From an uncultured Clostridium sp. (lineage in GTDB: Bacteria > Bacillota > Clostridia > TANB77 > CAG-508), in contig CANPOS010000006.1 in assembly GCA_947575745.1 (NCBI GenBank), positions 315-64,314 of the forward strand: 64,000 bases of DNA. Reading direction: 5' to 3'. A program made the position numbers and the translations under genes. Shown here piece after piece: positions 17,509 to 17,625 of this stretch. Positions within the stretch are counted from its first letter, which is position 1. Each line of letters starts with the position of its first letter. The notes below the pieces were generated by a model. That model saw nothing but the letters and a program-made list of their open reading frames with translations, was not told the DNA's origin and searched no databases.

Positions 17509-17625
17509 AAAATAAACTGCGTATTGCGTTGTTATTCCAAATCAAAAAATGCATCAACGTGCAAAAAGCACGCCTCCGCTTTTTTGATTTAAAATGCCTA
17601 GCACTACTTGTTTCTTTTGAAAATT
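17509..17625 (+). repeat. Copy A of a ~130-bp repeated structured intergenic element
   Basis: AAAATAAnCnGCrTATTGCG... outer stem aaatcaaaaaa/ttttttgattt, inner hairpin CGTGC-aaaaa-GCACG, then CCTCC, ending AAAATGCCTAGCACTAC. See copies at 39765 and 57336. Confidence 0.55.

Follow-up and report, generated by a model that had tools for sequence, protein, structure and literature searches.

REPINs are hairpin-forming doublets of REP sequences that are mobilised by RAYT transposases, and compensatory changes are common in them (Bertels & Rainey 2011, PMC3116915). Their excised intermediate is asymmetric, with a tail complementary to the other end that has been proposed to act in target recognition (PMC3116915). 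Clostridia carry Group 1 RAYTs (PMC5581495). ERIC, Correia (NEMIS), RUP and bcr1 elements are imperfect palindromes of ~100-170 bp in transcribed intergenic regions (reviews PMC3184786, PMC10969869). REP, ERIC and Correia elements affect the relative stability of neighbouring cistrons. Elements of the IS200/IS605 type and PATEs have two separate subterminal hairpins and insert just 3' of a short target of 4-5 nt. In IS608, the target is recognised by base pairing with an internal guide.

The window analyzed here, 64,000 nucleotides from a contig of an uncultured Clostridium sp., contains three hairpins, A, B and C. They belong to a palindromic repeat, so far undescribed, that is widespread among uncultured gut Clostridia. 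In our judgement this repeat is fairly probably a non-autonomous, interspersed palindromic DNA hairpin of a REPIN- or MITE-like kind, not a regulatory RNA. On the best reading, its nearest known kinds are REPINs and IS200/IS605-type single-stranded DNA elements.

Like REPINs, the element is interspersed and extragenic, forms one long hairpin of similar size (~100-140 nt) with two highly conserved inverted regions, a more variable middle and frequent compensatory changes, and occurs in clusters and tandem pairs. Unlike REPINs, its conserved boxes form asymmetric internal loops, whereas REPs are short, GC-rich palindromes headed by GTAG; an apical hairpin, also conserved, and an optional module are added; its left end abuts stop codons or Shine-Dalgarno (SD) sites; no RAYT is linked to it in the fetched loci; and its hosts are low-GC Clostridia rather than Proteobacteria. 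With IS200/IS605 elements and PATEs it shares the lack of DDE-bound terminal inverted repeats (TIRs) and of a direct target duplication, what may be insertion just 3' of a short motif (...AAAATAA in type-1 copies), imperfect hairpins with unpaired bases as the likely recognition feature and, as proposed below, target recognition through base pairing. Yet it has one hairpin in place of two, and ~8-16 nt of target complementarity. The ERIC, Correia, RUP and bcr1 repeats resemble it in their form and setting, in size variants that arise from internal insertions at fixed points, in co-transcription with neighbours and in a transposase that is trans-acting or not known. They differ from it in sequence (Rfam and BLAST were negative), and its outer arms form no conserved TIR and show TA duplication inconsistently. 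From classical MITEs, whose small size (<~300 bp) and non-coding, multi-copy, interspersed nature it shares, it is set apart by the lack of TIRs of the same sequence in all copies and of a direct duplication at pyrC-pyrF.

Three copies in the window

The sequence-only reading had described three related structured elements in the window. Core, box and fold checks confirm all three places, on the + strand, while the proposed extents proved too short: with a further stem at the very outside, every copy becomes one hairpin. Their core, TCAACGTRC-N3-8-GYACGCCTCC, occurs three times in the window against 0.00 expected from shuffles, the 3' box TGCCTAGCA starts at 17595, 39851 and 57482, and a covariance model run with filters off recovers only A, B and C, the next best match having 18.6 bits (E 0.14). 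Folding and alignment reproduce both the outer stems of differing but complementary sequence and the 5-bp apical hairpin's swap between G-C and A-T.

Copy A (whole hairpin 17497-17632, + strand) lies 3' of a split SDR/FabG-like gene and is matched by the model at 17493-17635 with 119.4 bits. Its predicted fold has -30.0 kcal/mol (z -4.1) on the + strand and -46.1 kcal/mol (z -6.8) on the - strand. By sequence and fold, the left outer arm AATTTCCAAAATAAAC (17502-17517) pairs with the right outer arm GTTTCTTTTGAAAATT (17610-17625); the putative native stop codon of the SDR gene, a TAA at 17501-17503 judged from NCBIfam profile ends, stands at the foot of the left arm. The 5' box TTGCGTTGTTA (17524-17534) forms the 5' side of an asymmetric internal loop and is at least 90% conserved in an alignment (A2) even though it was absent from that search pattern. 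The predicted apical hairpin CGTGC-AAAAA-GCACG, followed by CCTCC, occupies 17558-17577, and the 3' box 17595-17603.

Copy B (39754-39888, + strand), in the 5' UTR of an ABC-F gene, is matched at 39750-39892 with 134.9 bits and folds with -44.1 kcal/mol (z -6.9) on the + strand and -57.1 kcal/mol (z -11.8) on the - strand. It has its outer arms at 39758-39773 and 39868-39883, the 5' box at 39781-39791, the apical hairpin at 39814-39827, CCTCC at 39828-39832 and the 3' box at 39851-39859.

Copy C (57324-57519, + strand; fold -62.2 kcal/mol, z -6.9) has a left arm at 57325-57343, a right arm at ~57498-57519, an apical hairpin at 57446-57459, CCTCC at 57460-57464 and a 3' box at 57482-57490. The extra hairpin noticed earlier in this copy is present in fold and alignment, yet it is two hairpins (57380-57399 and 57404-57439), which make up an optional module (57380-57439) that recurs in loci L004 and L043 and stands by itself in a variant on L017. 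The model scores copy C at 43.6 bits, and at 69.7 bits on L170 with the insert modelled. An apparent 3' tail shared by copies A and C was discarded, its alignment being unconvincing.

A widespread family in gut Clostridia

A search of relatives together with the covariance model, as the sequence-only reading had suggested, recovered a large interspersed family in gut Clostridia. We found about 175-180 further copies in gut Clostridia MAG and metagenome loci, GC-rich variants included; a scan of the genome collection gave 46-47 true copies, and the covariance model 69 matches in 350 kb of genome-collection loci and 112 in 651 kb of metagenome loci. The hosts are low-GC gut Clostridia that are uncultured, and there are relatives in other Bacillota and in GC-richer organisms. 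The element is non-coding and 135-200 nt long (~140 bp, or ~200 bp with the optional module). A conserved mini-ORF in type-2 copies (ATG AAA AAC TTC GTC TTG CGT TGT TAA) was discounted, as the boxes of type-1 copies stand in a different frame.

Across very different host GC, the copies retain the asymmetric boxes TTGCGTYGTTA and TGCCTAGCA and the apical hairpin YGTRC...GYACR; the boxes are common to contexts from 25% to 59% GC and to Anaerospora. They are not self-palindromic and jointly form one asymmetric internal loop. As in REPINs, two inverted conserved units and a variable spacer give a hairpin with compensatory changes, and the whole element is a single global hairpin, without separate left-end and right-end subterminal hairpins. 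Copies at unrelated loci of different MAGs have interiors that are 93-100% identical, and even among these the outer 8-12 bp of both arms vary, so that arm conservation is restricted to the inner part (AAAATAAT/ATTCTTTT or ATGAAAAAC/GTTTTTGAT). Such differing outer arms suit neither a classical MITE nor a fixed guide arm, unless the arms are corrected at or after insertion.

Searches of viral contig, phage and plasmid collections gave no match to the element. With Rfam 15 at the gathering threshold, the window yielded only a tRNA-Lys, and the E-value mode on a locus that carries three copies only chance-level matches. A tRNA/tmRNA search of the window likewise found only the tRNA-Lys, at 22553. 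In the literature on the box sequences and on MITEs and RAYTs of Clostridia we found no account of the family.

A model and a name for this repeat would help annotation, as it fills intergenic spacers of many uncultured gut Clostridia, even in ribosomal-protein and pyrimidine operons, breaks metagenome assemblies, displaces stop codons and SD sites, and can pass for a riboswitch or a small RNA.

Filled and empty sites

Copies B and C are recent insertions, as close relatives have empty sites. Between pyrC and pyrF, alignment with the empty sites of L180 (pyrC 95% identical) and L176 delimits the inserted DNA of copy C to 57343-57542 (+ strand; the right limit is approximate, by ~20 nt). The spacer in L180 is 44 nt long and has no element; overall, the junction is empty (27-44 nt) in relatives with pyrC 95%, 91%, 91% and 89% identical, filled in the window's own species, and filled by other subtypes in lineages at 90%, 89% and 86%. 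The flanks are intact and no direct repeat or target-site duplication is seen at the junctions in this comparison. In every filled lineage the insertion starts right after the TAA, and at least three distinct subtypes in four lineages each begin directly after ...GAAAAATAA.

The empty site in L180 reads ...ATTAAATTTGAAAAATAA/gaaatt and the window ...ATTAAATTTGGAAAATAA/TCAGC...TTCTTTTCCAAATTTGG, with the slash marking the junction. Judged from these sequences, the left arm of copy C, including the stop codon TAA at 57340-57342, and its AAAATAA box are native pyrC coding sequence, to both of which the inserted right arm is complementary. The 5' box proposed earlier has three exact occurrences in the window, but its AAAATAA part in copy C is the native end of pyrC and is also found in relatives without the element. 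This pattern of a native left and an imported right arm fits the complementary-tail intermediate proposed for REPINs. Insertion into the hairpin loop of a pre-existing palindromic target was considered but finds no support, since the empty pyrC site has only a 6-bp inverted repeat at chance level.

Could the hairpins instead be ancient and immobile, for example former terminators, reshaped by template switching and homogenised by gene conversion? Template switching can make and repair perfect stems in one event (PMC8794818), the interiors of the copies are mosaic, and short perfect hairpins over stop codons are common in the window (e.g. 27573-27605 and 11000-11030). However, ~200 nt are cleanly present or absent at pyrC-pyrF between 95%-identical relatives, the same asymmetric boxes recur from AT-rich to GC-rich contexts and in Anaerospora, and near-identical copies stand at unrelated loci of different MAGs. 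We therefore consider an immobile origin quite improbable. The earlier suggestion of a hairpin-based mobile element or MITE, in contrast, agrees with the presence and absence between relatives, the large interspersed family and the near-identical interiors.

At the corA-ABC-F locus, a promoter-like site (TTGAAA-17-TATAAT, 39701-39729, + strand) lies upstream of copy B and belongs to the context, not to the element; copy B would therefore be transcribed in the ABC-F leader. Directly 5' of it, AGGAGG at 39750-39755 (+ strand) is probably the native ABC-F Shine-Dalgarno sequence, split from its start codon by the insertion, as suggested by comparison with L186-L188, which read ...AAGGAGGaaagataaATG. 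In these relatives (ABC-F 94% identical) the site is empty and the homologous promoter stands directly before the SD and ATG. In L185, whose ABC-F is 98% identical, the ortholog of copy B has decayed to 36 bits. The left arm of copy B, AAGTTTGAAAAATAA, is not visible in the empty-site relatives, so the left arm is not demonstrably native everywhere.

An exposed CCUCC, identical to the anti-SD sequence, had been noticed earlier, and an attenuator had been one of the readings offered. As a regulatory leader, attenuator or anti-SD RNA, the element would pair its CCUCC with GGAGG of a downstream or other mRNA or mimic the 16S 3' end, and copy B would control the ABC-F gene. In their predicted folds, A, B and C indeed leave CCUCC unpaired, and copy B lies between the promoter-like site and the ABC-F start, with GGAGG just upstream. 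Attenuation is frequent among ABC-F genes of the antibiotic-resistance type; the protein encoded here, however, is nearest to the PRK15064 family model rather than to a resistance type. When copies are gathered via the boxes and not the core, the apical loop varies (CCUCC, CUUCC, ACUCC, UUUCC, CCUCA etc.) and the bases flanking it are often paired, so the exposed CCUCC is one variant and not a family-wide feature. The same element also stands 3' of unrelated genes. Copy B is not an ancestral leader or attenuator, because it is missing in the 94% relatives and decayed in the 98% relative; these empty and decayed orthologous sites largely refute this explanation, which we regard as extremely improbable.

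Terminator prediction gave no + strand call, with a GC-rich stem and U-run, at A, B or C, which also speaks against attenuation; only the apical hairpin of copy A was called terminator-like, on the - strand. As the copies moreover lie within operons, we reject an intrinsic terminator.

Covariation in the hairpin

The covariation reported from the three window copies is real in the family. Paired cells make up 92.6%, compared with 66.5% in shuffles and 31-45% with partners slid, and 34 of 37 pairs show double changes, single-sided changes being nearly absent. Over 41 opposing positions, 88.3% are Watson-Crick, 1.7% G·T, 2.3% A·C and 3.0% C·T. Nearly all changes thus lead from one Watson-Crick pair to another, and G·U is no commoner than other mismatches and shows no enrichment on one strand or the other. 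This pattern suggests a palindrome of DNA more than an RNA fold under selection. The sequence-only reading had deduced selection on structure. As the covariation is of the Watson-Crick type only and without G·U excess, it does not demonstrate that an RNA fold is selected, and the ncRNA interpretation is not supported. For a DNA palindrome, inferring selection on structure from covariation is unsafe. Together with the empty sites, the Watson-Crick-only pattern makes the family a clear case of very strong covariation without a functional RNA.

Of 43 copies, 41 have the more stable fold on the non-transcribed strand, by ~9 kcal/mol. An attempt to identify the functional strand from G·U versus A·C mismatches was abandoned: the apparent preference for the - strand stems mostly from three conserved A·C positions, outside of which both strands are alike. 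A K-turn or tandem G·A motif on the - strand was dismissed too, its loop being off consensus.

Insertion sites and orientation

Insertion sites are very short intergenic spacers, and at its left end the element directly adjoins a translation signal, either the upstream stop codon (sense copies) or the downstream SD, which antisense copies abut. Of 70 sense copies, 52 have the end of the upstream stop 3-22 nt within the model, most often at 9-10 nt, the stem foot. Type-2 copies stand after ...ATGAAAAAC, and whether the motif before the insert belongs to the target or to the element may differ between sites. Many type-2 copies have TA at both tips, but A, B and C do not, so that a TA target duplication in the manner of ERIC and Correia elements was set aside; no family-wide terminal inverted repeat or direct target-site duplication was seen.

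Copies are flanked by core genes whose synteny is conserved (ribosomal proteins, pyr operon, groESL, infA), with up to six copies inside ribosomal-protein (S10/spc) operons, whose junctions carry the element in some MAGs and lack it in others. These surroundings bear on the idea that the elements are attC-like sites, which mark gene cassettes and, folded as single strands, serve an integron-type tyrosine recombinase as substrates. Several features would suit such sites: the copies are imperfect palindromes with a length like that of attC, lie directly 3' of stop codons and share the orientation of the ORF, structure is kept more than sequence, some unpaired bases are conserved, and the strand antisense to the ORF folds better. 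The neighbours, however, are not cassettes, the copies are single insertions into existing spacers, type-1 copies lack the R''/R' core-site consensus (RYYYAAC...GTTRRRY), and no integrase was seen in the loci examined; we attach scarcely any probability to this explanation.

Sense copies outnumber antisense ones by 51 to 7 and 51 to 24 in two sets, and sense orientation inside transcription units holds for all window copies and for 77% of copies with unambiguous neighbours. This bias could reflect RNA-level selection. The family might accordingly be kept as a cis-acting mRNA hairpin in 3'-UTRs or between cistrons, which blocks 3'-exonucleases or is cut by RNase III and so sets cistron stability. 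The hairpin begins at the stop codon, copies lie between co-transcribed genes (pyrC-pyrF, groES-groEL, S10/spc operon genes), and the folds are much more stable than shuffles. Some sites are occupied across several species with only 66-77% DNA identity, which could indicate retention for function rather than repeated hot-spot insertion. Against this stand the nearly exclusive Watson-Crick changes without G·U enrichment on either strand, the better folding of the non-transcribed strand, the same junctions without element in close relatives, the decay of orthologous copies (36 bits in L185, 28 bits in L181) and antisense copies in the same operons as sense copies. On balance, we consider mRNA stability unlikely as the reason for the family's maintenance.

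A possible mechanism

Among the fetched loci (~1.2 Mb), the only Y1 transposase was an ordinary IS200-like gene 4.7 kb from the L008 cluster; phmmer and tblastn searches with its TnpA gave no second copy, neither in the loci nor in the window. The fetched loci contained no transposase or RAYT linked to the family and no orphan 5' and 3' boxes on either side of a long insert, as in an autonomous IS.

The hairpin would act at the DNA level, single-stranded or as a cruciform, and its conserved mismatched loops would probably be recognised in trans, for instance by an HUH/Y1 transposase of the IS200/IS605-RAYT type. The target would be sequence complementary to the element's own 3' arm, e.g. ...TTTGAAAAATAA, so that each insertion would rebuild the palindrome from a native and an imported arm; mismatch correction or template switching afterwards could keep the arms matched. 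Inside transcription units a long hairpin is thereby also added to the mRNA, presumably as a side effect and not as the reason for the family's existence.

In its full form, a single-stranded DNA hairpin transposon that finds its target by ~8-16 nt of pairing with its 3' arm, rebuilds the palindrome at each insertion and undergoes heteroduplex correction afterwards, this model is a possibility that we put forward tentatively and with considerable doubt. If target pairing were true, REPIN/IS200-type single-strand transposition would reach Bacillota with a much longer, guide-like recognition, and a naturally guided, in principle re-targetable insertion mechanism would bear on the site choice of such elements and on possible tool development. 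The guided-insertion enzyme in Clostridia would be a candidate HUH/RAYT-like protein.

Heteroduplex correction would edit either the arm or the host gene, and pyrC may hold traces of it. A GAA codon in the empty-site relatives is GGA in the window, a Glu-to-Gly change, and GGA matches the CC of the right arm. L182 and L184, which share one old pyrC insertion, differ in a synonymous Lys codon (AAA vs AAG), and their right arms differ in step with it (TTT vs CTT).

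Extent and anatomy of the element

Shuffled versions of the window contain no match to the core TCAACGTRC-N3-8-GYACGCCTCC, whereas the window itself has three, which bears out the three intergenic hairpin elements of the sequence-only reading: copy A after an SDR gene, copy B before an ABC-F gene and copy C after pyrC. The 5' box said to be common to them has three exact matches in the window, the 3' box, TGCCTAGCA, is present in each copy, and alignment and folding reproduced the stems previously described, the exchange between G-C and A-T within the five base pairs of the apical hairpin, and also the additional hairpin of copy C. 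The copies were correctly located but described as too short, as each has one more stem on the outside, which turns the whole copy into one imperfect hairpin on the + strand: A at 17497-17632 (−30.0 kcal/mol, z −4.1), B at 39754-39888 (−44.1 kcal/mol, z −6.9) and C at 57324-57519 (−62.2 kcal/mol, z −6.9). We scanned the window, filters off, with a covariance model based on 43 relatives, and it matched only A, B and C (119.4, 134.9 and 43.6 bits, respectively); the next match, at 18.6 bits, was noise.

Read 5' to 3' on the + strand, the element starts with an outer arm that varies between copies and a semi-conserved inner arm (AAAATAAT in the type 1 subtype, ATGAAAAAC in type 2), followed by the box TTGCGTYGTTA and a variable, A/T-rich stem. 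This leads to a small apical hairpin, YGTRC-loop-GYACR, with UCA.../...CUCC on its flanks, after which the variable stem is completed by its second strand and the box TGCCTAGCA and the return arms follow. The two boxes lie opposite each other and form an asymmetric internal loop. An optional two-hairpin module is found 5' of the apical hairpin in copy C and in the fetched loci L004 and L043, and in place of the apex in one variant on L017. The exposed CCUCC, previously taken as a feature of the element, proved to be only one of several variants once copies were gathered without forcing the core (others are CUUCC, ACUCC, UUUCC and CCUCA), and the 'loop' bases adjoining the apical stem are frequently paired.

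Spread of the family

A pattern scan over one genome per species yielded 49 loci, of which 46-47 were true copies in MAGs of uncultured gut Clostridia, from rabbit, goat, mouse and other hosts, and two were chance matches; among the 49 was one copy with a GC-rich stem in Anaerospora hongkongensis. The model gave 69 matches on these loci. A second scan with the two boxes picked up at least 120 metagenome contigs, and the model, run on the first 100 of these (651 kb), gave 112 matches, some of them in copies with a GC content of 50-59%. Viral contigs, phages and plasmids yielded no family match, and Rfam no match to the element. The window's own species is present in a series of ENA gut assemblies and has 66-77% DNA identity to the nearest fetched MAG loci. 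Our literature searches turned up no description of this widespread family.

Covariation and the nature of the pairing

Compensatory substitutions, proposed as a check on the structure, are abundant among family copies. In 100 distinct metagenome copies, standard pairs make up 92.6% of cells, compared to 66.5% after shuffling and 31-45% with the partners slid; 34 of 37 pairs changed on both sides and one-sided changes are nearly absent. The covariation is strong, but the step from it to an RNA function, taken in the sequence-only reading, fails, since the pattern is Watson-Crick and of the DNA type. In structurally selected RNAs, G·U is by far the best-tolerated non-canonical pair and the usual intermediate. 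In the element it is no commoner than other mismatches on either strand: the 41 opposing positions are 88.3% Watson-Crick, 1.7% G·T, 2.3% A·C, 3.0% C·T, 1.5% A·A and 1.4% T·T, and transversions, A-T to T-A, account for many of the pair switches. Folding is better on the − strand by ~9 kcal/mol in 41 of 43 copies, mainly owing to three conserved A·C positions, outside which the strands are similar in sense and antisense copies. Without a G·U excess and with the strands alike, the pairing constraint is symmetric and Watson-Crick, as expected of a DNA palindrome. Such a palindrome could be maintained because it has a function as DNA or through copying from one arm to the other; template switching is reported to be able to create and maintain hairpins (PMC8794818). 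The family warns that covariation by itself can mislead.

Genomic position

Among copies with clear neighbours, those co-oriented with both flanking genes prevail by 51 to 7 in the genome set and by 51 to 24 in the metagenome set. In 52 of 70 sense copies the upstream gene reaches into the model, where its stop codon ends after 3-22 nt; the mode is 9-10 nt, at the stem foot. Antisense copies have this same end, the left one, 0-10 nt from the Shine-Dalgarno (SD) sequence of the next gene, and their right end 0-380 nt from the preceding stop. One S10/spc ribosomal-protein operon holds up to six copies, and further ones lie between groES-groEL and rplW-rplB. In the window, copy A follows a split SDR gene, copy B lies between a promoter-like site, TTGAAA-17-TATAAT, and the ABC-F start, and copy C between pyrC and pyrF.

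The SDR/FabG-like (YmfI-like) gene before copy A is split into ORFs at 16773-17294 and 17257-17592, which overlap; the downstream one continues through 32 codons of the element. Removal of one base near 17486 would restore a normal end, ...DGGWIT-stop, with a TAA at 17501-17503 at the hairpin foot; the split may mark a pseudogene or an error of assembly. At 17661-17689, between copy A and the following gene (17796-18659), for which there was no family match, is a perfect sigma-70 consensus (TTGACA-17-TATAAT, 12/12). Elsewhere in the window, a trypsin-like/PDZ protease (53967-54867) is formed by two overlapping ORFs, 53967-54242 and 54205-54867, and is likewise called as two genes in public contigs of the same species.

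Empty and filled sites

We fetched pyrC-pyrF junctions via a graded series of pyrC homologues. The window's exact PyrC protein is found on nine contigs, and all six of the loci fetched have a 259-nt spacer. In contrast, the spacer is 44 nt in L180 (pyrC 95% identical) and L176 (91%), 27 nt in L177 (91%) and 31 nt in L178 (89%), with no model match in any of them. The L180 junction reads ...ATTAAATTTGAAAAATAA, then gaaattaac...AGGAGAAATAAAAATG; that of the window reads ...ATTAAATTTGGAAAATAA, then TCAGCATCTTGCG...TTCTTTTCCAAATTTGGTATG..., then gaaaatt...AGGAGAAATAAAAATG, so that ~200 nt (57343 to ~57542) were inserted exactly after the pyrC stop codon. The left arm of copy C, with its 'AAAATAA box', is made of native pyrC codons, whose product, a C-terminus ...KF(E/G)K-stop, is common to homologues with and without the element, and the imported right arm is complementary to this native end. 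At the identical point, L181, L182 and L184 (90%, 89% and 86% identity) have copies that are decayed or of other subtypes, which makes the site a hot spot. The insertion in L182 and L184 is one and the same, an old one, and the two differ in a synonymous Lys codon, AAA versus AAG, which the right arm matches in each case (TTT versus CTT). The penultimate pyrC codon (57334-57336) is GGA (Gly) in the window lineage and GAA (Glu) in close empty-site relatives, and the G of GGA matches CC in the right arm of copy C. This change may be due to correction between the arms that extended into pyrC, but is only suggestive because L183 has Gly (GGC) at this codon without an element.

At the corA-ABC-F junction, relatives with a 94% identical ABC-F read promoter-AAGGAGGaaagataaATG without an element and a 98% relative has a decayed copy (36 bits), showing copy B to be an insertion as well. 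An AGGAGG directly 5' of it (39750-39755) aligns with the pre-ATG SD of element-less relatives; judging from this alignment, the insertion probably stranded the native ABC-F SD upstream of the hairpin. A second SD-like sequence, GGAAAGGA, follows copy B at 39892-39899. At ribosomal-protein junctions, too, some MAGs have the element and others an empty site. These empty and filled sites among relatives show the copies to be insertions and uphold the earlier suggestion of a hairpin-type mobile element.

Upstream of rplB (~1640-1700), L071 has a solo left-end remnant, AACAATGAAAAACTTCG-TTGCG, antisense and before the rplB SD, where other MAGs have a full antisense copy and L001 reads TTTTTTCATTGTT without an element. 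Independently of the element, the rplW-rplB spacer of L001, L071, L111 and L143 contains a conserved small hairpin pair, tatctggaaaataccagga ... atctgc-ggagcaggaaaaaa.

A possible mechanism of insertion

Copies with 93-100% identical interiors are found in different MAGs and at loci unrelated to each other, yet their outermost 8-12 bp differ while remaining self-complementary (L054/L067, the L084 pair, L104/L010, L114/L061, L044/L045). Together with the pyrC case, this suggests that the interior and the right arm form the mobile unit, which would land beside sequence complementary to the right arm (...TTYGAAAAATAA in type 1). Gene conversion between old copies could also account for interiors that are identical despite differing arms, and a weak point of a native left arm is that the left arm of copy B is not visible in empty-site relatives. 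If the interior and right arm do move as a unit, arm mismatches would subsequently be corrected in either direction or, alternatively, the outer stem would be extended by template switching. Such a mechanism resembles the guide-target pairing of IS200/IS605 transposases. It is also close to that proposed for REPINs, of which an asymmetric excised intermediate has been seen, with a tail complementary to the other end, by which it may recognise its target through base pairing (Bertels and Rainey, PMC3116915).

The asymmetric boxes and the three fixed A·C mismatches are kept over a range from Clostridia with 25% GC to contigs with 59%, a persistence that argues for a trans-acting protein reading them. 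We found no enzyme for the family in ~1.2 Mb of fetched loci, where the sole Y1 transposase gene (L008, 2-619) is ordinary and IS200-like, has the usual end hairpins and lies 4.7 kb from a tandem element cluster (5299-5541). RAYT group 1 has been reported in Clostridia (PMC5581495).

Several further hairpins and rearranged copies were seen. In the window, a perfect 14-bp hairpin at 27573-27605 (− strand), with no U-run after it, overlaps the stop codon of the gene at 27601-28242, which is on the minus strand. The hairpin has arms, GTGAAAAAAC/GTTTTTCAC, similar to type 2 outer arms, and may be a stem left on its own or the footprint of an excision; another hairpin of this kind, likewise over a stop codon but with a U-run, is at 11000-11030. 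In L136, two 205-nt inverted copies of a GC-rich variant (8353-8557 and 12186-12390, 89% complementary) flank 3.6 kb in a composite-transposon-like layout; the ORFs in between are, by their translations, amidohydrolase-like, HAD-like and AAA-ATPase-like, with no transposase among them. Compared with L054/L094/L131 and L067, L060 and L118 combine parts of two copies, the left flank and arm coming from one and the right arm and flank from the other, either through recombination between copies or as metagenome-assembly chimeras at the repeat.

Classification

The element lacks the defining features of an attC site, of any Rfam family and of a terminator (none is predicted on the + strand at A, B or C, the only terminator-like call being on the − strand of A's apex). 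It resembles REPIN and PATE-type hairpin elements in how it works, and ERIC and Correia repeats in size, position and insertion variants, but has neither the constant TIR and direct duplication of a classical MITE nor the REP units of REPINs. We file it among the interspersed palindromic non-autonomous elements; any effects it has on mRNA decay or translation would likely be side effects. It is unusual in its insertion flush with stop codons or SDs and in being a palindrome with a native arm.
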